Notes: generated by a model from the letters alone, not told the origin. A DNA stretch of 64,000 nucleotides from an uncultured Desulfovibrionaceae bacterium (GCA_964371195.1 CAYJLD010000002.1:159-64158); one strand, 5' to 3'; shown: positions 17,710-57,513, counted from the stretch's first letter. Numbers and translations are program-made.

Positions 17710-18102
17710 ATGGTCTATGACAACCTTTCTGCCCTAAATGCCTTTTCCAATGGCATGGCTGTTAGTGCGCATAATATTGCCAATGTTAGCACGCCCAACT
17801 TCACAAGTTGGGAGTATCACTATGGTGCAGGTCCTGGCGGTACTGTGCAATTGCAAGTCAACAATAGCCCCATTCGTCTAGATAATGCCGATGCCTTAAA
17901 CCCACTACCACCCACCTTTAATGAAAGTGAAACCATTGGTATGGCTAATAATACTGTTGACTTAGCTACCGAATTTACTCACCAAATTTCCACCCAAAAT
18001 GCCTTTGAAGCCAATGCCATAGCCATACGCAGTCGTGATGAAATGTATGACAGCCTTTATCATCAAACATATGGCCCTGGCCTTATATCATACCGAGTAT
18101 GA
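17710..18102 (+). CDS. small flagellar basal-body rod-like protein (FlgB/FlgC-type N- and C-terminal motifs)
   Basis: The N-terminal segment GMAVSAHNIANVSTPNFTS resembles the rod-protein ANNIAN..T.GF motif. The C-terminal segment DLATEFTHQISTQNAFEANAIAIRSRDEMYDSL resembles the rod C-terminal helix. No other flagellar gene is nearby. Confidence 0.5.
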   Translation: MVYDNLSALNAFSNGMAVSAHNIANVSTPNFTSWEYHYGAGPGGTVQLQVNNSPIRLDNADALNPLPPTFNESETIGMANNTVDLATEFTHQISTQNAFEANAIAIRSRDEMYDSLYHQTYGPGLISYRV

Positions 18103-18134
18103 TTTTTCATAACTAGCTAGTAATAAGGACAACT

Positions 18135-20198
18135 ATGCCAACAGATATGCGCATGCTAAACCTAGGTTGTGGAGATATTTACCATACCGACTGGGTGAAT
18201 GTAGACTTACAAGCTAAGCAAAATGCCATACTTGGCTATGATTTACGTCTGGGCATTCCTTTTGCTGACGCTAGCTTTGACGTGGTATATCATGCACATT
18301 TATTAGAATACATGCCTAAACCTTGGGCTGAATACCTTCTGCGTGAATGCTATAGGGTACTTAAGCCTGGTGGTACTTTACGAGTAGTAGTGGCAGACTT
18401 TGCCAATATGGTGCAAGCCTATATGCAAAGTCTTGTAGATATAGATGAGCATAAAGAGCATGCTCATGCTAAGCATGGATGGATGCTACAAGAAATCTTA
18501 ACTCCACTTATTAGTCCAGTAAGTAATAAACAGCTAAATGAATTTGCACAAAAACTATCCCCAAGCTTAGATAGTTTCATTCAAGATAGACTAGGTACAA
18601 AGCCGCGCAACTCATCACCACAAGACCAAGCACACTCTAAACAACAAATAAATATATTTGATGAACCCAAACACCCCATACCTCCAAGCCAAGATTTTTT
18701 AAGCTCCATGCAGCAAAAGCACTGGATGTATGATTACATATCCCTAAGCACACTTTTTACTCAGTGTAAATTTACTGAAATAACTAAACAAACTCACATC
18801 ACAAGCTTCATACCTCAGTTACAAAGATTTGAACTTGATAGCCACGCCGATGGAAGTGCGCGCCATACTAATTCCATCTACCTTGAGGCTAAAAAACAAC
18901 AACAAAATACAACAATAACCCCACGTATAGCCATGCTTTGTACAGCTGACCACGGTGGAGCTGGCAATGCTGCAGTGCGATTGCATGACGCTTTGCGATT
19001 GGAGGGTATGTCTAGTAATTTTTATGTAGCTCACCAGCGCGATTATAGTGAAAATGTTTATGTAATACCGGCTTATAGTGGACACATTGCATACATAGGC
19101 CAACACTTTGATAATGCCATACGCAGTGAGCTGCAACGCTGCTCACAAAAATTACATCATGAACTTTCACGCTATCCGAACCGCCCAGAAGGCTGCGAGC
19201 ACTTTTCCATACCAGCCCAATGCCTACCCTTAGAGCAAATAAGCATCTTAAGTGATTTTGACATATTACACTTGCACTGGATATCTGGCCTTTGTGACCC
19301 AAGCCTTGCAGTAGATTTTTTACGTAATAAAAAAATTGTTTGGACTTTACATGATATGAACGCCATGACAGGTGGCTGTCATTATAATGATGGATGCCGT
19401 AAATTTGAACAAGCTTGTGGGGCTTGCCCACAACTTGGTTCTACTCAAAACAATGATTTAGCTAATCAAACTTGGCGTTTACGTATGCAAACCTATAAAG
19501 AACTTGATTTGCACATTGTAACCCCAAGCTCTTGGCTTGCTAAAGAGGCAAAAAAAAGTGCCCTATTAAAAAATTTCCCCATACATACCATAGCATATGC
19601 CCAACCATTACATATCTTTAGGCCTATGCAACGCGAAAGTTTACGCGCATCACTAAATATTAACCAAAACAGATTAGTCCTTTTGTTTGCATCCCAAGTA
19701 CTTAACAACCGCAGAAAAGGAGCTATATATCTTTTAGAATTATTACAGGTACTTGTCAATACACCCTATAAAGATAATACCACTATCTTACTGCTTGGTA
19801 ATGCTAACAACACAGCTTTTAGCCATAGTGGCATGGATATTAAATACCTTGGACACATTAACGATAATGAGCAAATGGCCGCTATGTATAACATAGCTGA
19901 CGCCACTATTGTACCTTCGCTTGAGGACAATCAACCCAATGTAATTTGTGAATCATTAGCTTGTGGTACGGCCGTAGTAGCTTTTGCTGCTGGCGGCATC
20001 AGCGAAATGATAAAGCATAAAGAAACCGGATTTCTTGTAGAGCCCAAAAACCTTGAGCAATTAATAGCTGGCGTGCAATGGGCGCATAGTGTTTACCAAA
20101 ACCCAATAACCCGCAGACTATGCCGCGCTTATGCTATGGAACAATATAATATGTCTAAAAGTGCTAAATTATATCAAGATTTATACGCTAATCTCTAG
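18135..20198 (+). CDS. fusion protein: class I SAM-dependent methyltransferase (N) + GT4-type glycosyltransferase (C)
   Basis: The N-terminus LNLGCGDIYHTDWVNVDL ... YRVLKPGGTLRVVV is Methyltransf_11-like. The C-terminus EDNQPNVICESLACGTAVVAFAAGGISEMIKHKETGFLVEP is a GT-B signature. Confidence 0.75.
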   Translation: MPTDMRMLNLGCGDIYHTDWVNVDLQAKQNAILGYDLRLGIPFADASFDVVYHAHLLEYMPKPWAEYLLRECYRVLKPGGTLRVVVADFANMVQAYMQSLVDIDEHKEHAHAKHGWMLQEILTPLISPVSNKQLNEFAQKLSPSLDSFIQDRLGTKPRNSSPQDQAHSKQQINIFDEPKHPIPPSQDFLSSMQQKHWMYDYISLSTLFTQCKFTEITKQTHITSFIPQLQRFELDSHADGSARHTNSIYLEAKKQQQNTTITPRIAMLCTADHGGAGNAAVRLHDALRLEGMSSNFYVAHQRDYSENVYVIPAYSGHIAYIGQHFDNAIRSELQRCSQKLHHELSRYPNRPEGCEHFSIPAQCLPLEQISILSDFDILHLHWISGLCDPSLAVDFLRNKKIVWTLHDMNAMTGGCHYNDGCRKFEQACGACPQLGSTQNNDLANQTWRLRMQTYKELDLHIVTPSSWLAKEAKKSALLKNFPIHTIAYAQPLHIFRPMQRESLRASLNINQNRLVLLFASQVLNNRRKGAIYLLELLQVLVNTPYKDNTTILLLGNANNTAFSHSGMDIKYLGHINDNEQMAAMYNIADATIVPSLEDNQPNVICESLACGTAVVAFAAGGISEMIKHKETGFLVEPKNLEQLIAGVQWAHSVYQNPITRRLCRAYAMEQYNMSKSAKLYQDLYANL

Positions 20199-20304
20199 CT
20201 TTCTATACTTGACCTTTATTCCATGTTGGCCTAGCATAAACTTGAATAGTTCATAAAAATACATTTTTGCATTACGCATCAATAACCACCTAGGACAGAA
20301 AATA

Positions 20305-22725
20305 ATGTCTACTAAGCAGCATTCGCCAGTTAAAATTAACTCTAATGACCCTCATAGTGAGGCAAGGGCATTGCTTTGTGAGAATGAGTATTTTTCTACT
20401 CTTTGGACTGAAGACTTAAAGCTAATTGATGCTAATAAGGCTACATTAGAACTCTTTGCAATGGATAAAGAAAGCCTTTTAGCTTCTTTTTTTGATTTAT
20501 TCCCACCTTTTCAGCCCAATGGAGAAAACTCTGTCAGTGCAGCTATAAAAAAGCTAAATGACGCTTTAGAAAATGGGTTTACAGGATTTGAGTGGTCATT
20601 CTTAACCAAACAAGGACAAATGTTTTCTGCGCAAACGGCCTTAGTGCGCCATCGCATAAATGATAAATTTTATATTATTTCGCACTCTGCTAAAATCATA
20701 ATACAAACGAAACAATCAATAGAGCAAAATTATGAAAGAGGGCAAATTATACTTAAACATTTACCCTTTGGAGTAGATTTTTGGACAGATAAATTTGAAC
20801 TTGTTGATTGCAATGAAGGATCATTAAACTTATTTGGTTTGTCTTCAAAACAAGAATATTTTGATAATTTCCACACCTTTTCTCCAGAGTATCAACCTAA
20901 TGGACAACGCTCTGCTGACCTCATACCTCAGCACCTCAACAGAGCACTGCAAGAAGGTTATACAAAATTTGAATGGATGCACACCACACCCAAAGGAGAA
21001 GAACTACCTATTGAAGCAACCTTAGTTTGCGCTGAAAATAATGGTGAAAAATCTATTATAGTATATTACAAAGATTTACGTGAGATTAAACAAGGTATTA
21101 AAAAAACAAAAAAAATAGAACAACGCTTAATTCATATTCTTAATGCTGCTCCCTACTCTATCACTTTATGGAATAAAGACGCACAACCTATTGATTGTAA
21201 CGATGCAACACTAGTCTTTTTTGGTTTTGACTCGAAAGAGGAATACTTCACCAAATATTATCATGCCCTACCTTCTTTCAAAAGAACTGGTATTCTTGGT
21301 GAAGGTCCATTCTACGACATTTTCAAGCAAGTTTTTGAAGAAGGCTATGCTTTTTATGAAGGAGAAATTGGTCATTATAAAAGTGATGATTTATTTTTTG
21401 TAGAAGTAATAATTAGAAGGGTTATTATTGATGATGAAGTCTTTGCTATATCATATCTAAATGATTTGACATATCAAAAGGCTATGCTTAATGAAATTGT
21501 TAAAAGCCACAGAGAAGCTTCCATAGCACGTGATGTTGCAGAAAGAAGTACCAAGGTTAAAAGTGAATTTCTAGCTAATATGAGTCATGAGATTCGTACG
21601 CCAATGAATGGAATTCTTGGTCTTATTCATTTACTTAGCTTTACTAATTTTGATGAGCAACAAAAAGAATATGTTGATAAAATTCGTTACTCGGCAGAAA
21701 GCTTGTTAAGAATTATCAATGATATTCTTGATTTTTCAAAAATTGAAGCCGGTAAACTTGAAATAGAGAATACAAGCTTCACTTTAGAAGAAATTAAAGA
21801 AGAACTCTATGCTCTATTTGAAGCTAAATTTGCAGAAAAAAATCTAAATGGCCAAATATTCAATGAAAATACTGAAAATATTAAACTTATTGGTGACCCG
21901 CTTCGTTTAAAACAGGTGCTACTTAATTTAATTGGTAATGCTATTAAATTTACTGATGAAGGCTCTATTGTTGCCGATGTTACCTTAGATGTTGACTATG
22001 ATAATAATAAAGTACATTGCAAGTTTAGTGTTACAGATACTGGCATTGGTCTAAGCATTGAGCATAATAAGCGACTTTTTAGCGCTTTTAGTCAAGCCGA
22101 TGCTTCAACTACCAGAAAATATGGCGGTACAGGACTTGGTCTTGTTATATCTAAACGCATCGTAGAAATAATGAACGGAAAAATATGGGTAGAAAGCGAA
22201 GAAGGCAAAGGTTCTAAGTTTTACTTTACTGCCGAATTTGCGCTTGATACCACACCCATGCCCGAACTTGAAGACTTCGCTAATTTAGATAACATTAAAA
22301 ATATGGAAGGTGTAGACTCTGCTCTAGAAGATGACCCTAGCCAGAACCATTTTGGATATATCTTATTGGTAGAAGATAATGAAATAAATCAACTAATCGC
22401 CAATGAGTTACTCACGATTAAAGGACATAAGGTTGACATTGCAAATAATGGTCAAGAAGCAATTGAAATGATACATAAAAATAATTATGACATTGTCCTA
22501 ATGGACATACAAATGCCCATATTGGATGGCCTCACAGCTACAAAAACATTACGTGAAGATCAAAAATATAAAGACTTGCCAATTATTGCTATGTCAGCTC
22601 ATGCCATGAAGGGAGATAGAGAAATTAGCCTAAGCCATGGAATGAATGATCACTTATCAAAACCTATTAATCCTCAAGATTTATATACTTGCCTTAACTC
22701 TTGGATTATAAAAAAATCAATATAG
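20305..22725 (+). CDS. cytoplasmic multi-PAS hybrid sensor histidine kinase / response regulator
   Basis: H-box FLANMSHEIRTPMNGILG, N box IGNAIKFT, G boxes DTGIGL / GGTGLGL, receiver DIVLMDIQMPILDG ... LSKP. No TM segment was seen. Confidence 0.85.
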   Translation: MSTKQHSPVKINSNDPHSEARALLCENEYFSTLWTEDLKLIDANKATLELFAMDKESLLASFFDLFPPFQPNGENSVSAAIKKLNDALENGFTGFEWSFLTKQGQMFSAQTALVRHRINDKFYIISHSAKIIIQTKQSIEQNYERGQIILKHLPFGVDFWTDKFELVDCNEGSLNLFGLSSKQEYFDNFHTFSPEYQPNGQRSADLIPQHLNRALQEGYTKFEWMHTTPKGEELPIEATLVCAENNGEKSIIVYYKDLREIKQGIKKTKKIEQRLIHILNAAPYSITLWNKDAQPIDCNDATLVFFGFDSKEEYFTKYYHALPSFKRTGILGEGPFYDIFKQVFEEGYAFYEGEIGHYKSDDLFFVEVIIRRVIIDDEVFAISYLNDLTYQKAMLNEIVKSHREASIARDVAERSTKVKSEFLANMSHEIRTPMNGILGLIHLLSFTNFDEQQKEYVDKIRYSAESLLRIINDILDFSKIEAGKLEIENTSFTLEEIKEELYALFEAKFAEKNLNGQIFNENTENIKLIGDPLRLKQVLLNLIGNAIKFTDEGSIVADVTLDVDYDNNKVHCKFSVTDTGIGLSIEHNKRLFSAFSQADASTTRKYGGTGLGLVISKRIVEIMNGKIWVESEEGKGSKFYFTAEFALDTTPMPELEDFANLDNIKNMEGVDSALEDDPSQNHFGYILLVEDNEINQLIANELLTIKGHKVDIANNGQEAIEMIHKNNYDIVLMDIQMPILDGLTATKTLREDQKYKDLPIIAMSAHAMKGDREISLSHGMNDHLSKPINPQDLYTCLNSWIIKKSI

Positions 22726-30400: not shown

Positions 30401-31390
30401 CTATACCCCAAGAGCAGCTTTTAAATAAATTTCTCGTAATTCTTCTTTCTGCATAACATCCGCAAACAACAAGTATATCTGGCGAAGCCATACTTTACGT
30501 ACACTTGGTGCATTTTGCAAACGTGCATTAATAATCTCTTGTCTAGGTATGCTATGGATTAAATTACTTAAAGCCTGAGCACGATGTAGGGCGCGATGTT
30601 TTTTATCAATTTCCATAAGTCCTTGCTGTGCTAAACTTTGACGTACATTAGCATTAGCAAGTAAATACTCTATGCACTTGGCAGCATCTTTAGCATTGCC
30701 TGATTCATAAGTAACAAGGTGCTTTTTATTAATAAAAAGTTTATCTAAACCATGCCCCACTTGTGGCGTAACCAAAACACCGCCACAACCTAAAGCCTCA
30801 AACACCCTAAAATTCAAATCTTCATTTTCACAATGATTAAGCAAAACACGTCCCAAGGGAAACAGCTTTGCATAATTACCTTGTAAAACGTGCAAACTAG
30901 GCATGTACTCCTTAAGTTCTTCTATAAACTTCACACGCTTAGCTAAGTTTTCAGCATTGACATTTCCCACAAAAAGACAATCATGTTCTGGGGATATTTG
31001 GTCATTAGGAGCGTCAGTATCACGAGCAAAAGGAGGGCTCCACAAAATACGTTCAGACGCTAAGTTTTTATGTCTAAAAAAATCAACATGATCATGTAAG
31101 CTAACTAAGCATAGGTCAAAAGCTTGGGCATAATTTGCAAACCAGCTATGTATATGGCTATCAACAGCATAAAAAACAGTAAGACAAGGAAAATTCTCCA
31201 TTCCCAAAACAAATGGTGGCAAACTTTTATCAGCCACAACCAAAACGTCAGGTTCATATCCAGCTATTTCTACAATTCTTTCCCAATTAAACACTTCAAA
31301 TTCATTAAAGTTAAAATAGCGCACCTCAAAGCCGCACAAAGGTAAAGAGGTTTGAAAATAATCATGTCCTATCCAAAAAAGACGTAGCAT
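30401..31390 (-). CDS. CgeB-like / DUF3880-type glycosyltransferase-family protein
   Basis: The pattern PDVLVVADKS ... FYAVDSHIHSW ... FDLCLVS ... RVFEALGCGGVLVTP resembles CgeB-type GT1-like proteins (memory only). Confidence 0.5.
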   Translation of the reverse strand: MLRLFWIGHDYFQTSLPLCGFEVRYFNFNEFEVFNWERIVEIAGYEPDVLVVADKSLPPFVLGMENFPCLTVFYAVDSHIHSWFANYAQAFDLCLVSLHDHVDFFRHKNLASERILWSPPFARDTDAPNDQISPEHDCLFVGNVNAENLAKRVKFIEELKEYMPSLHVLQGNYAKLFPLGRVLLNHCENEDLNFRVFEALGCGGVLVTPQVGHGLDKLFINKKHLVTYESGNAKDAAKCIEYLLANANVRQSLAQQGLMEIDKKHRALHRAQALSNLIHSIPRQEIINARLQNAPSVRKVWLRQIYLLFADVMQKEELREIYLKAALGV

Positions 31391-36319: not shown

Positions 36320-37804
36320 TTAAAATGGCAAAGCTTCTCCCAAGCATTGCAACAATTCATCAAGTCCAATACCTTGCATGGCAGAAATGGGTATGGCATG
36401 TGGGTAGGCTATGCGCAAAATTTCTTGCTCCTCTTCATCTAACATATCCCACTTATTTAATGCTAAAACTAAGGGTATATCTTGAAGCCCCATATCACAT
36501 AATACATCATTCACTGAAGCTATTTGTTGCTCAAAGTAAGCATGAGAAACATCAGTTACATGTAAAAGCACATCAGCTGCTTCTAATTCCTCCAAAGTAG
36601 CCCGAAATGAATTTTTTAATTCATCTGGTAGGTTACGAATAAATCCCACTGTATCAGCTAAGATTACTTCTTGCTCTTTAGGAAAGCGCAAGCGCCTTGT
36701 AGTAGGGTCAAGAGTTGCAAACAACTTATTTTCTGCAATAACCTCTGACTTGGTCAAAGTGTTCAGCAAAGTAGACTTTCCGGCATTGGTATAACCAACT
36801 AAGGCAATGAGTGGCACACTTTGACGTGAACGCCTAGCCCTAGTAAATGCACGTTGTTTTCGTAATCCATCCAGCTCTTTATTAATTTTAGAAATACGAT
36901 CTCGAATGCGACGACGATCGGTCTCAAGTTTAGTCTCACCAGGACCACGCCCACCAATGCCACCCATAAGCCTATCCATGGCTCTATTCTTACCCACAAG
37001 GCGTGGCTGAGTATACTTTAATTGCGCCATCTCCACTTGTAATTTACCAGCCCTGCTAACGGCATGCTGAGCAAATATATCCAATATAAGTTGAGTTCTA
37101 TCTAAAACCTTGCGCTCTGTAATATCTGCTAAATTATGCAATTGCACCGGAGAGAGCTCCCCATCAAAAATTAAAACCGAGGCATGACCTTGCAAAGCTT
37201 GTACCTCAAGCTCAGACATCTTGCCTCGACCCATAATAAATTTAGGGTTTAACTTACTCACCCGCTGTACCATTTTACCAACTACATTAAGTCCAGCTGT
37301 ACGCGCAAGTTCAGATAATTCTTCTAAATGCTGTTCTTGAACCAGACGTGGAGCAATGCCCACAGAAATTAACATGGCTCTATCACCATCGCCAGTTTCC
37401 CTGGCGTGTTCAAACTCTCGCCCAAGTTCTTCTTCCAAGGCTTCAGCCACATCAGCAAAATTTACTTGGGCATTATGCCAAGGTTTGGCTGCATGTACCA
37501 TATATGGTTTTTGTTCAGGATTTGGCGGTAAAAGATGAGCATATTGCCACTGCACCGGTTCACCATATGGGCTAACACTAAGTACACAAATGGCATCAAG
37601 ACGCAAAAATAGCATATCCATGAGGTCTTCTTGCGAAAGTAAATCCACACCTAGATGAGTATGCAAAAGGCGCAAGCCACGCAAACGACCAGCACCGCTA
37701 CGCCCTCTAGATAGTGCAGGAATAAGTATACTTCCAAAATCACCAACAATAACCAGCTCAACCCTTCCACGCCTATCAAGCAAAAGGCCAAGCTGGCGCC
37801 CCAA
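36320..37804 (-). CDS. hflX: GTPase HflX (minimum extent; the frame stays open 60 codons further upstream, see findings)
   Basis: G1 GYTNAGKSTLLN, G3 ADTVGF, G4 NKWD, and the HflX N-domain RLRGLRLLHTHL ... EDLMDMLFLRLD. The track start at 37804 is a TTG without an SD. Confidence 0.85.
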   Translation of the reverse strand: MGRQLGLLLDRRGRVELVIVGDFGSILIPALSRGRSGAGRLRGLRLLHTHLGVDLLSQEDLMDMLFLRLDAICVLSVSPYGEPVQWQYAHLLPPNPEQKPYMVHAAKPWHNAQVNFADVAEALEEELGREFEHARETGDGDRAMLISVGIAPRLVQEQHLEELSELARTAGLNVVGKMVQRVSKLNPKFIMGRGKMSELEVQALQGHASVLIFDGELSPVQLHNLADITERKVLDRTQLILDIFAQHAVSRAGKLQVEMAQLKYTQPRLVGKNRAMDRLMGGIGGRGPGETKLETDRRRIRDRISKINKELDGLRKQRAFTRARRSRQSVPLIALVGYTNAGKSTLLNTLTKSEVIAENKLFATLDPTTRRLRFPKEQEVILADTVGFIRNLPDELKNSFRATLEELEAADVLLHVTDVSHAYFEQQIASVNDVLCDMGLQDIPLVLALNKWDMLDEEEQEILRIAYPHAIPISAMQGIGLDELLQCLGEALPF

Positions 37805-37941
37805 AACATGTGAGAGTGCCGCAAGCTCCTTGGCTTGTTCAGCACTAAAGGCCTCATGTTGAGGGAAGCGCCGCGCCTTAAGATTGTTTAAAGCCCTGAG
37901 CTGGCTTGGCTTAAGACCTTGTATGTTACCTTCAACCTTGG

Positions 37942-38544
37942 CTATGACACATCCTCCTGCCCAAGATATGAGCTCACCAATGCATCATAACGTGAAGTTT
38001 CTTCAAAGGTTTTTACTGCCATATTTTTACGAAATTCAAGGGCCACTTGCATATTATTTTTACGCATTTCACTCATGGCTTCGCGATAATACTTGCTCGC
38101 AGGCAAAACCAAAACACTATGATAATTTTTTGCTGCAGCCCTAAGCATACAAGGGCCACCAATGTCTATTTCTTCCACTGCTTGCAAAAGCGAAAGCTTA
38201 CGTTGTACGGCGCCTGCAAAATCATATAAATTGACACATACCAAATCAAATGGTTTGATACCCATATCAGAAATACTTTGCATATGTTCAACATTGTCCT
38301 TATCAGCCAAAATACCGCCATGCATATGTGGATGCAATGTTTTTACTCGCCCACCCAATATCTCTGGAAATCCTGTTACGGAACTTACTTGGGTAACTGG
38401 TAAACCTTCGGCCTCTAAAAATGCACAAGTACCTCCCGTGGAAACTAATTCCACACCATTTTCTACCAAAAAAATACCAAATTCCATAAGGCCAGTTTTA
38501 TCTGTAACTGACAATATAGCTCTCTTAACTTGCAATAATTCCAT
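37942..38544 (-). CDS. purH: IMP cyclohydrolase, stand-alone MGS-like N-terminal domain of PurH
   Basis: KRAILSVTDKTGL ... LVSTGGT ... FPEILGGRVKTLHPHMHGGILA ... DLVCVNLYDF matches the PurH N-terminal domain. The protein stops at 200 aa with no AICAR transformylase domain. Confidence 0.8.
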   Translation of the reverse strand: MELLQVKRAILSVTDKTGLMEFGIFLVENGVELVSTGGTCAFLEAEGLPVTQVSSVTGFPEILGGRVKTLHPHMHGGILADKDNVEHMQSISDMGIKPFDLVCVNLYDFAGAVQRKLSLLQAVEEIDIGGPCMLRAAAKNYHSVLVLPASKYYREAMSEMRKNNMQVALEFRKNMAVKTFEETSRYDALVSSYLGQEDVS

Positions 38545-38913
38545 ATATTTTCTCCTTATGAACTTTAATCACTACGCGCGTTTATCCTTGTATAAAATCA
38601 CTATTTATTACTGCATATTATTTCATATTATATATAATTAAAATCATACCTTAGTATATTAAAAAACATTAACACCGCAATCTTAAGATTAAACATAAAA
38701 AAATCAATTACGAAAATTATCACATGCTCTTCAAAATGCCAAGGTCGAAAATGCATGAGCATTTAGAATTTTTCTATTAATACATACTTTTCTAAATTTA
38801 TTTGAAGCAGAATACATTTTCAATCTTGGCATTTTTAGTAGTATATGATAGGAGACTGATGTTACATCGGTAATACTTTTTTATTAACCTGTACTTAAAA
38901 AGGAAATTTTGGA

Positions 38914-47832: not shown

Positions 47833-48909
47833 TTAAGAATCATAGCCCAAGGCTTTATTAAGCTCTACTCCGCCATGTTCAGCAAAAATTTTCTCAACTC
47901 TATCTGACCATATTTCGTCAGTAGATGAAAGCTTACCTGAAAATGTAAGTGTTTGTTTACCTGTGGACTCATTTAAAGCTGAAATAATTACATCCTTATC
48001 AACATTAAGAATGCTAGTAAGATTTTGTATGGATGCATTATTTTCTTTATCTTCAGCAACTAAATCTTCAAAAAGTACTACAGTCTCAGGATATGCCTGA
48101 ACCCACTGAACAATACTTTTCGTCACATTAAGCATATAAGTAAATTCACCAGATTGCATAAAGGAATATAAAGCTTCTTCAGTACAATCCATGCCCAACC
48201 ATCCTTCACCACTTGTATCTCTTTTTTGCCTATAGCGCATAAGGGAAACAAGGGCCACACGCAACTCACGCACAGAGCAAATTTTGGTTTTAAAACTCAA
48301 ATCTTCATTCCAACTAAAGGGTAAATGCCCCACCACAAATTGTCCTGGTTGAACTAAGTGCGTTTGAATGTATGATGATACCTTATAATAAGTAATTGTC
48401 TGGTCAGAAAATTTATTAAAATCTAATGCTCTTGAATCTGTTAAAGTATCCCCTGCGTGAAAACCTGCGTTTTGATATGAAAGCTTACGCAGCATACTTT
48501 CAAGCAGGTATGTGCCTGACTTTGGCAAAGTAATTACAAATAATGGGGGACGATTACTTAAATTTTCTAATGGCTTTTGAAAACAAATCCTGCCCTCACT
48601 TGTTCTTTCAAGTCTTAATCTTAGTGGAGGCACATTCATGGTGGGGATATAAATATCACTATCTTTATCAAAGTTCATCATGGCATTAAAAAGTGCAATT
48701 TGTAATTCATTAATATGTGAAATTTGATTATTAATCATGATGTTTTGTTTTACATTGGCATCATGTACTCGGTGCAACTCTCGATGTAACTCGCGGTAAA
48801 ATTCCGATAAAATAACCTCTTGCACTTGGTTTAAATGTGCGGTCACTGTTTCTTGTAAATGCGTTGTACCGCAAACTTTACGTATCAGGTTTAATATATA
48901 TTTTTTCAT
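47833..48909 (-). CDS. sulfotransferase-like protein, paralog 1
   Basis: 5'-PSB-like loop ITLPKSGTY (48511..48525 = PKSGT) and a 3'-PB-like SVRELRVALVSLMRY. The ATG at 48909 (MKKYILNLIRKVCGTT) is conserved with the paralog. Confidence 0.55.
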   Translation of the reverse strand: MKKYILNLIRKVCGTTHLQETVTAHLNQVQEVILSEFYRELHRELHRVHDANVKQNIMINNQISHINELQIALFNAMMNFDKDSDIYIPTMNVPPLRLRLERTSEGRICFQKPLENLSNRPPLFVITLPKSGTYLLESMLRKLSYQNAGFHAGDTLTDSRALDFNKFSDQTITYYKVSSYIQTHLVQPGQFVVGHLPFSWNEDLSFKTKICSVRELRVALVSLMRYRQKRDTSGEGWLGMDCTEEALYSFMQSGEFTYMLNVTKSIVQWVQAYPETVVLFEDLVAEDKENNASIQNLTSILNVDKDVIISALNESTGKQTLTFSGKLSSTDEIWSDRVEKIFAEHGGVELNKALGYDS

Positions 48910-49005
48910 AACACCCACCACCTCTATTACAATCACTTTTAAACAAGTCAGGTGATTACACTAAATTATTTACTATATACCATTTATATTATCTTAAAAT
49001 ACAGA

Positions 49006-50046
49006 TTAGTTGTATCCTAAGGCTTTATTAAGTTCGACCCCACCATACTCAGCAAAAATCTCCTCAACTCTATCTGACCATATGTCGTCTATAGATGAAA
49101 GCTTACCTGAAAATGTAGGCGTTTGCTTGCCAGTGGACTCATTTAAAGCTGAAATAATAGCATCCTTGTCAACATTAAGAATTGCACTAAGATTTTGAAT
49201 AGATGCATTATTTTCTTTATCATTAGTAATTAAGTCTTCAAAACGCACTACGGTTTCAGGATATGCCTGCACCCATTTCGCCATCTCCTCAGCTGCTCCA
49301 AACATAAACGGACGTTCTCTAGATTGGATAAATTGGTATAAAGCTTCTTCTGTATTGCCAAGTCGCATCCAACCGCCGCTGACTTGATCCCTTTTTTGCC
49401 TAAAGCGCATTAAGGAAACCAAGGCTACTCGTAAATCTCTAATGGAGCAAATTTTTACGCGTGAATATAGATGGTTATTCCAATAAAAAGGTAAATGCCC
49501 TGCCACAAATTGGCCAGGTTGAACTAGCATGGTTTGCATAAAGGGTGTTACATTATATTGAACTATTTTTGACATACCAAAGCTATCAAAATCAACAGTT
49601 CTCGAATCTCCCAAGCCTAGGCTATCCCTAGTTGGATAGTCAGCATGAAAGCCGGCATTTTGATATTTAAGGTGAGTAAAGATTTTTTCTAAGAAATATG
49701 TTCCTGATTTTGGTAATGTGATTACAAAAACTGGAGGGCGTAAACTCAAATTTTCTATGGGTTTTTGAAAGCAAACCCCACCATCAGAGGTTCTCTCAAT
49801 ACGCAAAGAACGAGGTGGGTTATCCAGAGTTGGAATAATGATATCATCACTCTTATTTTGCATGCCATTAAATAGAGCCATTTGTAAGTCATATATGGCA
49901 GCGAATTGATTTTGATTTCTTTCATGTTGCTCATTGAGCTTATCATGAATTTTTTGTGTCTCACTGTATAATTCTGCTAAAAATATATCCTTCAACAGTG
50001 TTGTACCACAAATTCTACGTATTATATTAAGTATGAGCTTCTTCAT
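49006..50046 (-). CDS. sulfotransferase-like protein, paralog 2
   Basis: ITLPKSGTYF (49699..49713 = PKSGT) and SIRDLRVALVSLMRF. The C-terminal roughly 70 aa are nearly identical to paralog 1. ATG at 50046 (MKKLILNIIRRICGTT). Confidence 0.55.
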   Translation of the reverse strand: MKKLILNIIRRICGTTLLKDIFLAELYSETQKIHDKLNEQHERNQNQFAAIYDLQMALFNGMQNKSDDIIIPTLDNPPRSLRIERTSDGGVCFQKPIENLSLRPPVFVITLPKSGTYFLEKIFTHLKYQNAGFHADYPTRDSLGLGDSRTVDFDSFGMSKIVQYNVTPFMQTMLVQPGQFVAGHLPFYWNNHLYSRVKICSIRDLRVALVSLMRFRQKRDQVSGGWMRLGNTEEALYQFIQSRERPFMFGAAEEMAKWVQAYPETVVRFEDLITNDKENNASIQNLSAILNVDKDAIISALNESTGKQTPTFSGKLSSIDDIWSDRVEEIFAEYGGVELNKALGYN

Positions 50047-50152
50047 GCGTAAATACCCCACAAATTTATTCACAATAACAATTTACTTCTGTTATTAACC
50101 AAACTTTGAATGGTAACAAAAAGCGCTCAAAGAATCAATTACAATGAGGGTA

Positions 50153-52459
50153 TTAGGAAATATTTTCGCTTATAGGTATTGAAGTATCAACACAATGCGC
50201 CACACGCCCTTCTTTGCGTCCCCAACGAATGTAGTGATAGAAGGGATTTAGCTTACAAGTAACTATACTAGGATCATGTGCTATATATTTTTTTGTATCA
50301 AACCACGGCGCGGGATTACGTCCCTCCTTAGCACCACGAGAAATATAATGCCATAAAGGCTCCATACCACTATCTAGCACGTCGGGATTACAATTTAAAT
50401 AATAATTTGCGTCAAAACAGCCTGAACGCCTAAGATAATAAAGCTCAGCCAAGGGCATATATACAAGCTGCACAATACGTTCAATAAGTGGTGTTTTATC
50501 CATTTTGGGAATACATGGCTCATCTACATGATAATGCAGCATCATAGCTTGATTTAATTTTTCATTTAAATAATTGCTTGCATAATTATATTTAGTCAAT
50601 CTCTCCCTAGCAAGGCATGGTAATATTGCTTCTTTATCTAAACGTGCCAATGAATCTATATCAAGCTTTGCTTGGGGCAATTTTTCATTGGCTATAGAGC
50701 TAATTTCATCTGTAATTATAGTATTTTGCAATGCCTTTACACCTAAAGGTTGTCCATATATATCTTGTTTGCTTTTTGCAACACCAAACGATGCTAAAAG
50801 GCTCTTACCATTACAAAATAATTTACTAGGTCGAAAAGCAGTTGAATTATAATTTAACATTTTCATCATGGTAAAAATAATAAAAAGTAATCTATTAGGT
50901 TTTGCTTCTTGAAAATTAATTGTATTTTTTAAAAAATCATATGCAGGTTCACCAAAGTGGGCTTTTACTAAGCTCTTTGTCCTAGGGCGACAAAACTCTT
51001 CTTTTAATATCTCAAAGGGATGTACCTCATTAGCACAAAATTCTTGAAAATCAGTAAATTCCAGTGTTTTTAAATTAATATCATATTGTCTTGTGCTCAC
51101 AGAATATGATCTTAATTCATTAATTTTAATAGCCTTTTGAACACAATCTAAATCCAACAATTTATTATTAAGTGGAATATCAACTAATTTTTTATTAATT
51201 TTTGTAAAAATTAATGCCGATAGAATATGGCGATATTCCCCTTCATAAGGTGTCAAATTTAATTGTTTTAACTCTTCATCCCAAAGTGGTGATAAAACAA
51301 ATTTATTATAAAATCTTCGCTCAATTGTATCCACAGCAAAATGATGTCTAAGTCTTGACTCATTATAGAACACACTTAAAAGACGTCCATCATCCTTGGT
51401 CGTAAAAAACTTATTATCTAATAATGCATGAATTTTAGCTAACTCTTTTGCTAAAAAATTTCGGGTAAGCTTATTTGTATCTGCATTAACTCGATGGCTA
51501 TTTCTTAGCTTGCTACCAAGTTCACTTACTGGAGAAAGCCAATAGCCTCTAAGAGTACCTTCTCCCCCAAAGCCAGTAAAACTAAGCTGTAGATTATCAT
51601 ATGTTTGTATAATATCATTCGCAAAACTAGTCTCTGAATGCAGACCAAAGCGAGTAAGTAAGGCAATGTTCCATGAGTCTGCATGGGACATAGTCCTTGA
51701 AGGGTATGCAATATGATTTAGTTGGAAGTTAAAAGTCTGGCTTAATTGCTTTGCTATTTCAAAATCATATGGGGCATGAGCTGGGCTCAGCGCATTAAAA
51801 TTAATTTTCGCAAAATCTATTCCTGAAGCCAAAAATAAAGCCAATGTTAATCTAGTATCAAAGCCACCGGAAAGATCTAAGCTTATATTATAATTAGCAT
51901 CCACAGCACTCTTAATTATGCTTGCCCATTTGTTAATCCAATTTTCAATAATGCTTTGCCCTTCATGGGAGTCTATTTCAACCGTGCCATAGCTTGATAA
52001 GTCTGGGAAGTCATATTGCAATGAGTTATTTTTTATGTTGATTTGCAGGGTGGTTTTACTTGGAATTAAATTAATCTGTTCGCATGGAGTTGCAGTATAT
52101 GCAATAGATGCAAATCCATCCTCTAAAAAATGCGCTATATATTCATAGTTTACATTAAGTTTTTTTTGCTTTTCAAACAATAGATATTCATAAAGAAGTA
52201 TAAATGAATTGGCTATGGCAAAATAATTATCATCCTCATATATAAATAGTTCGTATGTACCAATATTATCTTGATAAAACTTAATTACGTCGTCATCACG
52301 CTTAATCGCAATAAATGAACCTGAGGAGTTTTTATGCTTTTGTTCATCAAATTCATGAATATTATCAAATATCTTATCATCAGTTACAGCATAACCATAC
52401 ATCCTTGATGTAACTTCATACATGTTATTTGAATCTATTATAAAAAATTGATCACGCAT
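50153..52459 (-). CDS. asparagine-synthetase-like PP-loop ATP-pyrophosphatase lacking the glutaminase Cys, with C-terminal tandem repeats (paralog 2)
   Basis: PP-loop DLSGGFDTR (SGGFDT = 51854..51871). The N-terminal Ntn-like domain begins MRDQ rather than MC. The C-terminus carries two FD...Y...NPDV/DPSI...HY...G..EGR repeats (50204..50416). Confidence 0.6.
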   Translation of the reverse strand: MRDQFFIIDSNNMYEVTSRMYGYAVTDDKIFDNIHEFDEQKHKNSSGSFIAIKRDDDVIKFYQDNIGTYELFIYEDDNYFAIANSFILLYEYLLFEKQKKLNVNYEYIAHFLEDGFASIAYTATPCEQINLIPSKTTLQINIKNNSLQYDFPDLSSYGTVEIDSHEGQSIIENWINKWASIIKSAVDANYNISLDLSGGFDTRLTLALFLASGIDFAKINFNALSPAHAPYDFEIAKQLSQTFNFQLNHIAYPSRTMSHADSWNIALLTRFGLHSETSFANDIIQTYDNLQLSFTGFGGEGTLRGYWLSPVSELGSKLRNSHRVNADTNKLTRNFLAKELAKIHALLDNKFFTTKDDGRLLSVFYNESRLRHHFAVDTIERRFYNKFVLSPLWDEELKQLNLTPYEGEYRHILSALIFTKINKKLVDIPLNNKLLDLDCVQKAIKINELRSYSVSTRQYDINLKTLEFTDFQEFCANEVHPFEILKEEFCRPRTKSLVKAHFGEPAYDFLKNTINFQEAKPNRLLFIIFTMMKMLNYNSTAFRPSKLFCNGKSLLASFGVAKSKQDIYGQPLGVKALQNTIITDEISSIANEKLPQAKLDIDSLARLDKEAILPCLARERLTKYNYASNYLNEKLNQAMMLHYHVDEPCIPKMDKTPLIERIVQLVYMPLAELYYLRRSGCFDANYYLNCNPDVLDSGMEPLWHYISRGAKEGRNPAPWFDTKKYIAHDPSIVTCKLNPFYHYIRWGRKEGRVAHCVDTSIPISENIS
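52260..52459 (-). repeat. 200-nt near-identical tract shared with 54605..54804 (5' ends of the two AsnB-like genes)
   Basis: By-eye alignment shows 3 mismatches in 200 nt. The rest of the two genes is much more diverged. Confidence 0.85.
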
Positions 52460-52512
52460 AATGTAGTCTACTATGAATTTACGCTACGAATTTATGAATT
52501 CACTAAGTGCTA

Positions 52513-54804
52513 TTAGTTATCATCAATAAACATATCAACAAAATATGCTACTCGTTCTTCTCTTCGCCCCCAAATAATATAGTGGCAGAAAGGGTTTAGT
52601 TTACTAGCAACTATATCGGGATTTTTCGCTACATATTTTTTTGTATCAAACCAAGGTGCAGGATTGCGCCCCTCACTAGCACCATAGAAAATATAATGCC
52701 ACAAAGGATCTACACCGCTATTTAGAACATCTGGGTTACACTTCAAATAAAAACTAGCGTCAAAACATCCTGTACGTCTAAGATATAAAAGTTCAGCCCT
52801 TTGCCTAGAGATGCGTTTTAAGGCACGCATCCAGAACGGCATTAATCCTACATCTGGAACACATGGTTCTTCAATATAATGGCACATTTTACTAACAAAG
52901 TTTAGCCTTTTACTTAAAAGACTTTCAGCATCATTATATCTAGTAAGCTCACTCTTAGTCAAACATGGCAATATGTCATCCTTACTCCAATGATCTAAGG
53001 ATGACATAGATATCTTAGCTGGCTGAATATAGTGATTTATATCAAAAGTAGTGTCATTGGTATGAGAATTAAGTATGCCATTTACAGCTAAACTTTGATT
53101 ATCATCCATGCTCTGATCTATTAAGCTAGGTGTAAATAACTCCACAAGTTTTTTATTTTTATAAAATAATTTATTGGGAATAAAAGCTGATGATTGATAA
53201 TTTAGCATTTTGACTATGGTAAAAACAAGAAAAGCAGCTCTATTAGGAATTTTATCCTCAAAATTTATGATTTCTTTAAAAAATAAATACAGAGATTTTC
53301 CAAAATATGCATCCAACAAACCCTTTGTTTTTAGATTATAAAATACTTCTTTAAGCCTTTCATGAGGGTGTTGGTCATTTGCGTTAAATTCTTCATAGTA
53401 TTTAAAATCATGAGGCTGCAAACTAATATGATAATCTCTTGTATTTATTGCATATGACCTTGAAGAATTCATCTTAATGGCCTTATTAACGCAATCCTTA
53501 TCCAAATATTTACCGTTAAGTGGAATATCAATTAATTGCTTATTAAGTTTAGTAAAAATTAATGCCACCAAGATATTACGCTCTTTTCCCTCATAAGGTT
53601 TTAGATTTAACTTTTTTAGCTCTTCATCACAAAGTGGGGACAAAACAAGTTTATTAAAAAACTTTCTCCCAACATTACCAACACCAAAATGATGTCTAAG
53701 TCTTGTTTCATTATAAAATAAATTCAACAAACTACCATCATCTTTTTTATCCAAACCTTGCTGATTTGATAATGCCCAAACCTTACTCAGCTCTTTTCTT
53801 AAAAACTGTCTAGTCAAGCCTTTTACCCTAGCATCTAATTTTTGACTATTGCGCTGCATAACTTCCAACTCTTCCACAGGGCTAAACCAAGTGCTTCTAA
53901 TTACTTCCCCCCCAAAACCTGTAAAATTAAGCTGTATATTATCAGTAATTTGTGTAAGGTCATGCGCAAAGTTAGTCTCAGCATGAGCACCAAAGCGAGT
54001 AAGTAAAGCAATGTTCCATGAGTCTGCATGGGACATGGTCTTTGAAGGATATTTAATATTATTTAATTGGAAGTTAAAAGTTTGGCTTAATTGTTGAGCT
54101 GTTTCAAAGTCAAGTGGTGCATGTGCTGGGCTTCTGGCATTAAAATTAATTTTCGCTAAATCTACCCCTGAAGCAAGAAACAAAGATAGAGTTAATCTAC
54201 TATCAAAGCCACCAGAAAGATCTGAACTAATATAATATTTTTTATCAACAGCACTTTTTATTATACTTGTCCACTTGTTAATCCAACTTTCAATGATGCT
54301 TTGTCCCTCATTTGAATCAATATCAATAGTGCCGTAGTGTGACACATCAAAGAATTCAAAATTAAGAGTATTACTATCAATATTTATTTTAAATTTTGTT
54401 TTGCTTGGAATTAAATTTATCTGTTCACATAAAGTAGCTGTAAAAGCCAGAGAAGCAAAGCCATCCTCCAAAAAATGTGCTATATATTCAAAGTTTACGT
54501 CAAGCTTTTTATGCTTTTCAAACAACAAATACTCATAAAGTAAAATAAATGAGTTAGAAACAGCAAAATAATCTTCTTCCTTATAAACAAATATACCATA
54601 AGATCCAATATTATCTTGATAAAACTTAATTACGTCGTCATCACGCTTAATCGCAATAAATGAACCTGAGGAGTTTTTATGCTTTTGTTCATCAAATTCA
54701 TGAATATTATCAAATATCTTATCATCAGTTATGGCATAACCATACATCCTTGATGTAACTTCATGCATGTTATTTGAATCTATTATAAAAAATTGATCAC
54801 GCAT
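52513..54804 (-). CDS. asparagine-synthetase-like PP-loop ATP-pyrophosphatase lacking the glutaminase Cys, with C-terminal tandem repeats (paralog 1)
   Basis: PP-loop DLSGGFDSR (54199..54216). The ATG at 54804 has a GGAG 5 nt upstream, and the GTG at 54810 overlaps that SD. C-terminal repeats at 52552..52764. Confidence 0.6.
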   Translation of the reverse strand: MRDQFFIIDSNNMHEVTSRMYGYAITDDKIFDNIHEFDEQKHKNSSGSFIAIKRDDDVIKFYQDNIGSYGIFVYKEEDYFAVSNSFILLYEYLLFEKHKKLDVNFEYIAHFLEDGFASLAFTATLCEQINLIPSKTKFKINIDSNTLNFEFFDVSHYGTIDIDSNEGQSIIESWINKWTSIIKSAVDKKYYISSDLSGGFDSRLTLSLFLASGVDLAKINFNARSPAHAPLDFETAQQLSQTFNFQLNNIKYPSKTMSHADSWNIALLTRFGAHAETNFAHDLTQITDNIQLNFTGFGGEVIRSTWFSPVEELEVMQRNSQKLDARVKGLTRQFLRKELSKVWALSNQQGLDKKDDGSLLNLFYNETRLRHHFGVGNVGRKFFNKLVLSPLCDEELKKLNLKPYEGKERNILVALIFTKLNKQLIDIPLNGKYLDKDCVNKAIKMNSSRSYAINTRDYHISLQPHDFKYYEEFNANDQHPHERLKEVFYNLKTKGLLDAYFGKSLYLFFKEIINFEDKIPNRAAFLVFTIVKMLNYQSSAFIPNKLFYKNKKLVELFTPSLIDQSMDDNQSLAVNGILNSHTNDTTFDINHYIQPAKISMSSLDHWSKDDILPCLTKSELTRYNDAESLLSKRLNFVSKMCHYIEEPCVPDVGLMPFWMRALKRISRQRAELLYLRRTGCFDASFYLKCNPDVLNSGVDPLWHYIFYGASEGRNPAPWFDTKKYVAKNPDIVASKLNPFCHYIIWGRREERVAYFVDMFIDDN
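54605..54804 (-). repeat. 200-nt near-identical tract shared with 52260..52459
   Basis: Same alignment as the partner repeat. Confidence 0.85.
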
Positions 54805-54871
54805 AAACACTCCTTATCATAAAAATTCACATACTGCGTAGCAATTTTAAATGGAGTTGCTATCTATAGCT

Positions 54872-55681
54872 TTAACCCACCTCAAGGCATAAGCCCACGG
54901 GGCAATGGTCTGAGCCATAAACATGGCTTTCAATCCATGCATCCTTAATAGCTGGCCGCAATTCTTCAGAAACAAAAAAATAGTCAATACGCCATCCCAC
55001 ATTATTTTGGCGCGCACGAGCTTTATATGACCACCAAGAATAATACCCTTCCACATCCCCATTATGTGCTCTAAAGGTGTCCACATATCCGGCCTTGGTA
55101 AAAGCATCAAGCCATGCTCTCTCTTCTGGTAAGTAACCTGTATTGCATTCATTTTGCTTAGGTCTTGCTAGGTCAATGGGTTTATGCGCAATGTTGAAAT
55201 CACCACACACAACTATGGGCTTTGTTTTTCTAAGTTCTTCTGCATAATTTAAAAATGCATCAAAAAAACCCATTTTGTAAGGAACGCGCTTAAACTTACC
55301 GGTAGGCTTGCCAAGTTCATTTAATTCAGGCGCGCCACCATTGGGAAAATATACATTAAAATAATGAAACCATTCAAATTCCATATGTACCAAGCGGCCT
55401 TCACCTTGGTAGGTACTATCTGGTAATTCCGCATGCATGGCTAAAGGAACTATGCGGCTAAATGCAGCCACGCCAGAATACCCCTTCTTGACCACCGATG
55501 AAGCAAAAATACTATTCCAACCATTTGGATTAACAAGTTCTTCTTTAAGTTGGTCTGGATGGGCCTTTGTTTCTTGTAAACCAATAATTTGTGCATCACT
55601 ATCACCAAACCAAGACCAATCTGGTTTAGCTGATACAGCCCGCAACCCGTTGACATTCCATGAAAGCATTTTTATTTGCAT
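54872..55681 (-). CDS. xth: exodeoxyribonuclease III
   Basis: MLSWNVNGLRA, LQETK, VVCGDFNIAH, WSYKARAR ... GWRIDY, SDHCPV motifs. Confidence 0.9.
   Translation of the reverse strand: MQIKMLSWNVNGLRAVSAKPDWSWFGDSDAQIIGLQETKAHPDQLKEELVNPNGWNSIFASSVVKKGYSGVAAFSRIVPLAMHAELPDSTYQGEGRLVHMEFEWFHYFNVYFPNGGAPELNELGKPTGKFKRVPYKMGFFDAFLNYAEELRKTKPIVVCGDFNIAHKPIDLARPKQNECNTGYLPEERAWLDAFTKAGYVDTFRAHNGDVEGYYSWWSYKARARQNNVGWRIDYFFVSEELRPAIKDAWIESHVYGSDHCPVGLCLEVG

Positions 55682-55869: not shown

Positions 55870-57513
<1,644 letters not shown>

Follow-up and report, generated by a model that had tools for sequence, protein, structure and literature searches.

Between an OppF-like gene and xth, a contig of an uncultured, gut-type Desulfovibrionaceae bacterium (GCA_964371195.1, CAYJLD010000002.1:159-64158; the whole 64,000-nucleotide stretch analysed here is called the window) carries a block of four long open reading frames (ORFs). 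They occupy the region 47833-54810 on the minus strand in the order A1-A2-S2-S1 (Table 1). A first-pass annotation made from the sequence had described this arrangement; all four ORFs and their flanks are present, and the motifs that it quoted, namely the pyrophosphate loops (PP-loops), PKSGTY and R(E/D)LRVALVS, were all located by motif scan. A1 and A2 are 63% identical and are predicted to be relatives of asparagine synthetase B (AsnB) that do not use glutamine; S1 and S2, 60-64% identical, are predicted sulfotransferases. What would such a combination of enzymes make? The four ORFs are confirmed as genuine genes, beyond chance: frames of ~760 aa persist in DNA of 32% guanine plus cytosine (GC), ratios of nonsynonymous to synonymous substitution (dN/dS) between paralogs are low, and there are hundreds of homologs. 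The ORF listing contains no competing frame of at least 80 aa on the plus strand of the block.

Table 1. Coordinates of the four-gene block, its motifs and other features of the window, counted from the first nucleotide of the window
Feature	Position	Strand	Remarks
A1	52513-54804	(-)	763 aa; Cys-less, AsnB-like (predicted); ATG start MRDQFF at 54804
A1 codons 1-65, putative gene-conversion tract	54610-54804	(-)	97-98% nucleotide identity to the A2 tract
A1 PP-loop DLSGGFDSR, residues 195-203	54196-54222	(-)	motif scan, family alignment, hhalign
A1 C-terminal double repeat FDxxYYLxxNPDV...HYxxxGxxEGRxP, residues 681-752	52549-52764	(-)	motif scan
A2	50153-52459	(-)	768 aa; paralog of A1, same architecture
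A2 codons 1-65, partner tract of putative gene conversion	52265-52459	(-)	dS 0.03
A2 PP-loop DLSGGFDTR, residues 195-203	51851-51877	(-)	motif scan, family alignment, hhalign
A2 C-terminal double repeat, residues 682-753	50201-50416	(-)	motif scan
S2	49006-50046	(-)	346 aa; predicted sulfotransferase fold, N-terminal helical extension; start revised to MKKLILN
S2 5'-phosphosulfate-binding loop PKSGTY	49696-49713	(-)	family alignment, profile alignment, motif scan
S2 3'-phosphate-binding motif RDLRVALVS	49414-49440	(-)	family alignment, profile alignment, motif scan
S1	47833-48909	(-)	358 aa; paralog of S2; start revised to MKKYILN
S1 5'-phosphosulfate-binding loop PKSGTY	48508-48525	(-)	P, K, S, G and T invariant in 17 members
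S1 3'-phosphate-binding motif RELRVALVS	48244-48270	(-)	both R and the S invariant
S1 conserved GH in GHLPF (His 195)	48316-48330	(-)	His invariant
xth	54872-55681	(-)	Exo_endo_phos domain; upstream of A1
pyrG	55870-57510		546 aa; upstream; named from a reading of its translation only
hflX and MGS-domain gene	36320-38562		
PAS + HD-GYP-type (HD_5) protein	7346-9418		paralog of 11356-13464
GT4 glycosyltransferase gene	9431-10645		
PAS + HD-GYP-type (HD_5) protein	11356-13464		paralog of 7346-9418
Flagellar-rod-like gene to low-GC protein	17710-22725		three genes, see text
Methyltransferase-GT4 fusion	18135-20198		687 aa
Glycosyltransferase gene	30401-31390		

The ATG of A1 is preceded by AAGGAG, 7 nt upstream, and no clear ribosome-binding site was seen upstream of the A2 ATG. 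For both S genes the listed GTG starts (for S1, the GTG at 48936) are probably too long, and they were revised because the family alignment places the starts at MKKLILN and MKKYILN. The S1 ATG at 48909 has the Shine-Dalgarno sequence GAGGTGGTGGG upstream; the revised S2 start is that of a 346-aa NCBI product (P0024) and follows a weaker G-rich stretch. After this revision the intergenic gaps measure 53-106 nt. Promoter and terminator scans of the block stayed at chance level, with no predicted terminator between the four genes, and no Rfam match was found in 47-56 kb. On the downstream side the OppF-like gene (Pfam ABC_tran and oligo_HPY) is convergent with S1, from which its stop is separated by 9 nt, and the cobT flank has a DBI_PRT domain.

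Both paralogous pairs are old and have been maintained by purifying selection. The dN/dS ratio is 0.27 over the A1/A2 pair, 0.22 over its enzyme core and 0.22 for S1/S2, and paralog dS is similar for the two pairs at ~1.0-1.3. The 5' end of the A genes departs from this pattern: over codons 1-65, a tract that opens exactly at the ATG, dS is 0.03 versus ~1.0 across the remainder, which we read from the alignment as a recent gene conversion. Similarity is also unusually high over the last 65 codons of S1 and S2 (dN 0.07, dS 0.69).

Is the block of foreign origin? It is indeed AT-rich, as had been noticed from the sequence, at 0.32-0.37 GC versus 0.40-0.43 in the flanking genes; the host genome has ~39% GC. 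The argument for a foreign origin that had been drawn from this composition is rejected, however, since GC at synonymous third positions (GC3) equals that of the host: 0.23-0.30 in the block, inside the range of 0.279 +/- 0.022 given by 37 other window genes. The deficit sits at codon positions 1 and 2 (GC1 0.41-0.47 versus ~0.53), and in our reading, made by eye from the translations, it comes from the abundance of Asn, Lys, Ile, Phe and Tyr in these proteins. The block is either long resident or derived from a donor of similar composition. A tRNA scan of the window was empty, and no integrase or insertion sequence (IS) element stood out among the window ORFs, a subset of which was scanned against Pfam, in agreement with the first-pass annotation. 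Neither deviant synonymous composition nor mobility genes, the marks of a horizontally acquired island, were thus found.

The accessory status of the block follows instead from its absence from two close relatives and from a break in synteny. Xth is 84-87% identical to NCBI proteins from metagenome-assembled genomes (MAGs) and ~65-72% identical to those of Desulfovibrio, Desulfovibrionaceae and Mailhella MAGs, which places the host among the uncultured Desulfovibrionaceae. In the two close relatives (L086, L087), hflX, the MGS-domain gene and xth are contiguous, and in L086 cobT-oppF is followed by DUF1850-DctM, which is not in the window. In the window xth is inverted and lies at 54.9 kb, 16 kb from hflX and the MGS-domain gene, and the junction of this rearrangement, between oppF and xth, is exactly where the block sits. 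As far as their sequence is available, both relatives are devoid of A and S homologs, and the block does not prove to be a conserved core operon of known function in relatives.

A1 and A2 share one predicted architecture: a degenerate domain of the N-terminal nucleophile (Ntn) type at residues ~1-190, a PP-loop synthetase domain at ~191-540 and a C-terminal region of ~220-230 aa. An AlphaFold2 model of A2 was built on the family alignment, and the fold of A1 is taken from it; its predicted local distance difference test (pLDDT) score is >80 for most of 1-470, 50-80 to ~540 and <50 for 558-768. The top Foldseek matches of this model (residues 1-540) in the PDB are exclusively AsnB-type enzymes, aligned over 430-550 columns so that both domains are covered: TsnB9 (7ylz; E 1.2e-10, 547 aligned columns, 11% identity), the carbapenam synthetase CarA (1q15; E 2.5e-8), beta-lactam synthetase (BLS; 1mc1 and 1jgt; E 4e-8 and weaker, to 8e-7), human ASNS (9b6c; E 1.6e-7; 6gq3 also matched) and E. 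coli AsnB (1ct9; E 3e-6). Weaker matches have the Ntn domain only (GlmS, PurF, glutamate synthase) or the PP-loop domain only (NAD synthetases). By its modelled fold, then, the A pair belongs to the AsnB-type superfamily in its two-domain form, the assignment that had been proposed at first sight, and does not fall outside it.

The motifs agree with this placement. The family alignment (23 sequences, 21-31% identical to A2; paralog A1, 63%) has 33 invariant positions. The S, G, G, D and R of the PP-loop (S197, G198, G199, D201 and R203) are invariant in 23/23 members, so that the SGGFD(S/T)R motif is as intact as had been claimed, and G296 and R304 are also invariant. When aligned with E. coli AsnB by hhalign, only the PP-loop region matches (E 0.0067), with DLSGGFDSR on LLSGGLDSS and the D..IA..IA that follows the loop on AsnB residues 279-293. 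The most recurrent matches in a lenient Pfam scan of the 23 members were tRNA_Me_trans (six) and Asn_synthase (four, at E 0.0078 or weaker); QueC, NAD_synthase, ThiI and GATase_7 were matched by one member each, and the remaining weak matches were scattered and unrelated. No canonical asnB was found in the fetched loci. An anti-phage defence reading was rejected, since PADLOC returned noise only (QueC E 0.02, PDC-S05 E 0.015).

What remains of the glutaminase domain? A1 and A2 begin with MRDQFF, and their first Cys is residue 126. The family alignment contains no conserved Cys, and 0 to ~90 residues precede the first strand (invariant FFIIDS) in the homologs. Because a conserved Cys is lacking and the N-terminal extensions vary in length, the alignment rules out an Ntn-type nucleophile and, with it, AsnB-type hydrolysis of glutamine, in keeping with the earlier view of a Cys-less domain unable to act as a glutaminase. 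Nevertheless, the N-domain is the best-conserved part of the A proteins, with invariant positions that include F5, F6, I8, D9, S10, Y21, G22, Q63, D64, G67, N84, S85 and F86, and we infer from this that it has been repurposed rather than left to decay. In several homologs (P0003, P0008, P0013-P0017 and P0020) the FFIIDS strand is preceded by an N-terminal tail rich in Lys and by a single hydrophobic segment.

The A proteins are members of a large uncharacterised family, found mostly in gut and rumen anaerobes, for which no Pfam or NCBIfam model exists. At E<=1e-30, a profile search that covered all 1.84 billion representatives returned 769 proteins; the count rises to 1655 at <=1e-10 and to 2712 at <=1e-3, each count being of clusters at 50% identity. 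One-genome-per-species data yielded 92 relatives, all <=33% identical to A2 and almost all from rumen or gut samples; their hosts are Methanobrevibacter, Methanosphaera, Selenomonadaceae, Quinella, Lachnospiraceae, Clostridia, Spirochaetes, Brachyspira, Bacteroides, Ruminobacter and Desulfovibrionaceae. A1 and A2 themselves are singletons at 90% identity, with closest relatives ~30% identical. Tandem paralogs recur, with three copies in each of two loci (L049, L054) and two copies in four others. The family is a distinct, unannotated branch of Cys-less AsnB homologs with no characterised member.

Its genomic surroundings point to glycans. ORFs were called in 79 A loci and those within 6 kb were clustered. 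The dominant neighbours are GT2 glycosyltransferases, of which 31 loci hold 64 ORFs; the share of GT2-like genes is 15% among ORFs at <=2 kb from A homologs versus 3.5-5% at 6-10 kb, and they account for 25/141 immediate neighbours. UDP-glucose dehydrogenase, an NTP-transferase/aminotransferase fusion, LicD, a TagF-type CDP-glycerol transferase, an ABC-2 permease and DegT also occur. Several neighbour clusters of similar size look like housekeeping genes when their representative sequences are read by eye, and in two Desulfovibrionaceae loci (L064, L072) the A homolog has thrS-, infC- and lepA-like neighbours, named from their N-termini only, and the ORFs listed there include no glycan genes. 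In Methanobrevibacter an A homolog (P0004; L001/L002, 8283-9601) lies directly downstream of cas2 and cas1, which is probably coincidence.

Domain fusions and shared modules tell a similar story. A single 1845-aa protein (P0192) joins GT8, GT1/4, DUF1796 and an A domain, and in P0226 and P0261 the A domain is followed by fused Ig-like domains (Big_1/Big_3_5) at the C-terminus. The last part of most A homologs is a module of ~140 aa (RIDIKN..G...NSD...P.W...G.G..I.S..G.L.L...C...G.L...LRG.D.RD...R.P..IDYT), for which there is no Pfam model and which also ends adjacent GT2, DUF6270 and esterase-like proteins (examples are L015:12202-15099, L015:8397-9770, L023:15663-17186, L016:16952-18508 and L009:8499-9926). 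This module is not present in A1 and A2. They carry a C-terminal double repeat instead, likewise without a Pfam model, that is also found elsewhere (L010:7154-7279, L047:813-1052, L094:1589-1717). Its other carriers are an A homolog of Methanosphaera, coiled-coil proteins that neighbour A homologs and, with the repeat at the C-terminus, a sulfotransferase-like ORF beside an S-like enzyme in the metagenome loci L093 and L094; a repeat-then-sulfotransferase arrangement was seen in L095 by tblastn only. Judged from this distribution, the double repeat is a mobile module.

The second pair is divergent too. S1 and S2 score 19.8 and 19.4 bits (S2, E 7.8e-4) against Pfam Sulfotransfer_1, below the cut-off of 22; several of 17 S homologs carry a precomputed PF00685 annotation, and the S-family profile matches mouse SULT3A1 at E 6e-6. 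The PKSGT of the family aligns with the PKSGT of SULT3A1 and SULT7A1. R223, R226, S231 and H204 (family-alignment numbering) are invariant and align with RNPKDVLIS and SSHIPY of SULT3A1, and GHLPF is present in both S1 and S2. An AlphaFold2 model of S1 (pLDDT 84.6) has a long helix at 2-88 and a small beta unit at 93-111, followed by the sulfotransferase domain; its Foldseek matches are SULT7A1 (E 4.8e-5), TPST1/2, plant SOT16/18, heparan-sulfate 3-OST and NDST. By motif and modelled fold, S1 and S2 are divergent sulfotransferases of the type that uses 3'-phosphoadenosine 5'-phosphosulfate (PAPS), with a predicted activity to match, and profile and fold matches alike keep them among the SULTs and TPSTs. 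The sulfotransferase claim of the first-pass annotation, made from PKSGTY and the 3'-phosphate motif, is thereby borne out by alignment, profile and structure search. The N-terminal extension of ~120 aa, with its conserved start MKKxILNxIRRICGT, is novel.

Glycan loci also surround the S homologs in 4/5 neighbourhoods examined. These hold a methyltransferase and several GT2 genes (L004/L005); epimerases, GT2 genes and a radical SAM enzyme (L089); GT25, an ABC exporter, a double GT2, UDP-galactopyranose mutase and flagellin in Allorhizobium (L090); and GT4, an RfbT-like methyltransferase and ManC (L091). The fifth is a 3.2-kb contig with no glycan genes (L085), where the S homolog (P0026) lies beside an ORF that resembles cytochrome c peroxidase, from a reading of the translation only.

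How do these proteins compare with characterised enzymes? BLS and CarA catalyse ATP-dependent adenylation of a carboxylate, then amide formation. A1 and A2 resemble them in the two-domain Ntn-like and PP-loop fold, the SGGxDS-type loop and the lack of an N-terminal Cys. They are, however, only 10-14% identical with no sequence-level match, and carry the additional C-terminal region with its repeat; their N-domain is highly conserved within the family, and their context is that of glycan loci, with no CEAS, CarB or CarC. TsnB9, the best structural match and of AsnB-type architecture, is a hydroxyamidotransferase that directs a non-ammonia nitrogen nucleophile onto an adenylated carboxylate. Unlike A1 and A2 it keeps a working Ntn nucleophile; its substrate is a polyketide acid, and its gene belongs to a Streptomyces cluster. 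Lasso-peptide cyclases of the McjC type are Cys-less AsnB homologs that form an amide via acyl-AMP, but they depend on nearby genes for a precursor peptide, a leader peptidase and an RRE, none of which is found at the block. WbpS/WbtH-type enzymes of O-antigen clusters are glutamine-dependent, AsnB-like and form uronamides. AsnB and LtsA amidate the meso-diaminopimelic acid of peptidoglycan in a glutamine-dependent manner (PMC8554201, PMC5485061, PMC7920481). What A1 and A2 would share with both groups is AsnB-family amidation of the carboxylates of an envelope polymer or its precursor; the difference is that those enzymes keep the Cys, use glutamine and match GATase_7 and Asn_synthase, neither of which is matched by A1 or A2. 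S1 and S2, for their part, resemble PAPS sulfotransferases (Sulfotransfer_1, SULTs and TPSTs; NodH, Stf0 and rhizobial LpsS/KpsS) in fold, the PKSGT 5'-phosphosulfate-binding loop, the R..R/D....S 3'-phosphate-binding motif, the His base and the homologs in glycan loci; they differ in being 13-16% identical to solved structures, below the Pfam cut-off and extended at the N-terminus.

We interpret the block as a set of accessory tailoring enzymes that amidate and sulfate a cell-surface glycopolymer, a reading to which we give about an even chance. The target could be the capsule, lipopolysaccharide (LPS) or O-antigen, or else the glycan of a glycoprotein, for instance flagellin. The PP-loop domain of A1 and A2 would bind ATP and turn a carboxyl group into an acyl-AMP, likely that of a uronic or other acidic sugar, either as a nucleotide sugar or in the polymer; attack by an amine would then yield an amide. 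Because the Ntn-like domain has no N-terminal nucleophile, the amine would not come from glutamine hydrolysis but would be free ammonia or an amine already formed, for example an amino acid or an amino alcohol, and the conserved, degenerate N-domain probably binds this amine or the acceptor. S1 and S2 would move sulfate from PAPS onto hydroxyls or amino groups of that glycan or of a related one. Why two copies of each? The paralogs could serve two sites or substrates, or form heteromeric enzymes. The characterised members of these folds (AsnB, BLS, CarA, TsnB9, lasso cyclases and SULTs) perform adenylation and amide or sulfate chemistry, and it is by analogy with them that the two chemistries are proposed. 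The glycan target is proposed because of the homolog neighbourhoods, shared modules and glycosyltransferase fusions of both families, which lend independent support to the surface glycan named among several possible products in the first-pass annotation. The data themselves show the fold, the motifs, the selection and the genomic associations of the two families; chemistry, substrates and the action of both pairs on one product are what we infer from these lines taken together.

Several observations weigh against this interpretation. No glycosyltransferase, nucleotide-sugar gene or exporter adjoins the block, and no PAPS synthesis genes are visible in the window. A1 and A2 have no match in Pfam or NCBIfam, so that no curated AsnB model recognises them, and searches of PDB sequences with phmmer and with the 23-sequence family profile found none. 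Some A members have an N-terminal hydrophobic segment or Ig-like (Big) domains, which hint at a non-cytoplasmic location and would be awkward for the use of ATP. Finally, a second A+S pairing was found neither by tblastn of S against the 79 A loci nor with the A-family hidden Markov model (HMM) against 11 S loci; a metagenome scan with the S profile gave five loci, again with no such pairing. The coupling of the two pairs is drawn from adjacency in this one genome because the pairing was found nowhere else. Literature on glycan pathways that combine AsnB-like enzymes with sulfotransferases yielded nothing relevant.

That solitary pairing leads to the alternative that the pairs are functionally unrelated: S1 and S2 would sulfate one glycan, A1 and A2 would modify a different envelope target (peptidoglycan, a protein side-chain carboxylate or a polymer-bound acid), and their adjacency would reflect common insertion at a rearrangement hot spot. 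The position of the block at a synteny breakpoint is consistent with this, as are the A homologs among housekeeping-looking genes in L064 and L072 and the amidation of peptidoglycan by AsnB-family enzymes (PMC8554201, PMC5485061, PMC7920481). Nonetheless, the four genes all point the same way, the gaps between them are short and contain no predicted terminator, and both pairs show similar paralog divergence. The A1/A2 repeat, moreover, also sits on the sulfotransferase-like protein beside an S-like enzyme in L094. Taking both sides, we consider a lack of functional connection unlikely.

It is more doubtful still that A1 and A2 are catalytically inactive proteins with a scaffold, regulatory or carbohydrate-binding role, which would leave the sulfotransferases as the only enzymes of the block. 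The absence of any curated AsnB or PP-loop model at threshold, the lost glutaminase nucleophile and a C-terminal region that is low-confidence or predicted disordered from residue 540 could all be explained in this way. Against it, the PP-loop and ~30 other positions are invariant across 23 divergent sequences and dN/dS is 0.22 over the enzyme core. Such motif conservation is typical of active PP-loop enzymes.

Least probable of all, and rejected because the partner genes are not present, is a cassette tailoring a small molecule or a ribosomally synthesized and post-translationally modified peptide (RiPP), in which A1 and A2 would act like lasso cyclases or beta-lactam and carbapenam synthetases and S1 and S2 would sulfate the product in RaxST/TPST or sulfated-carbapenem style: although carbapenam and beta-lactam synthetases are among the top structural matches of A, tyrosylprotein sulfotransferases are among those of S1 and no glycosyltransferase adjoins the block, the short gaps and the lack of an extra ORF of at least 80 aa on either strand leave no room for a precursor gene, a leader peptidase, RRE, CarB/CarC, CEAS and exporter are absent nearby, homologs of both families lie in glycan loci rather than biosynthetic gene clusters, and the A domain occurs fused to GT8/GT4. 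The small molecule that had also been suggested as a product of this block finds no local support, nor does a lasso-type product.

To return to glycopolymer tailoring, a bolder form of it may be stated, which we offer tentatively and hold as a minority view. The A family would be an undescribed class of glycopolymer amide ligases, widespread among archaea and bacteria of gut and rumen, with the dead Ntn domain repurposed to bind an amine already formed or the glycan acceptor, and would here be uniquely joined with dedicated sulfotransferases to give an amidated and sulfated glycan, possibly one that mimics sulfated glycans of the host. Sulfation of bacterial glycans is rare. If the reading is true, a sulfate reducer that amidates and sulfates its surface glycan would be relevant to host-microbe interaction. 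Genetically the block is ordinary, an accessory tailoring cassette. Beyond this genome, the assignment of the A family to AsnB-type, glutamine-independent PP-loop enzymes and its association with glycosyltransferases lead to a testable idea: that its members place amide-linked substituents on acidic sugars of surface glycopolymers.

Elsewhere in the window there are three scattered glycosyltransferase genes, the nearest at least 17 kb from the block (Table 1). One of them is the methyltransferase-GT4 fusion, which follows a short flagellar-rod-like gene (Flg_bb_rod/Flg_bbr_C) and precedes an 806-aa low-GC (0.337) protein that resembles a PAS hybrid histidine kinase by eye; this stretch may represent a flagellar glycosylation context. 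Another is the GT4 gene at the left of the window, which is flanked by the two paralogous PAS and HD-GYP-type proteins.

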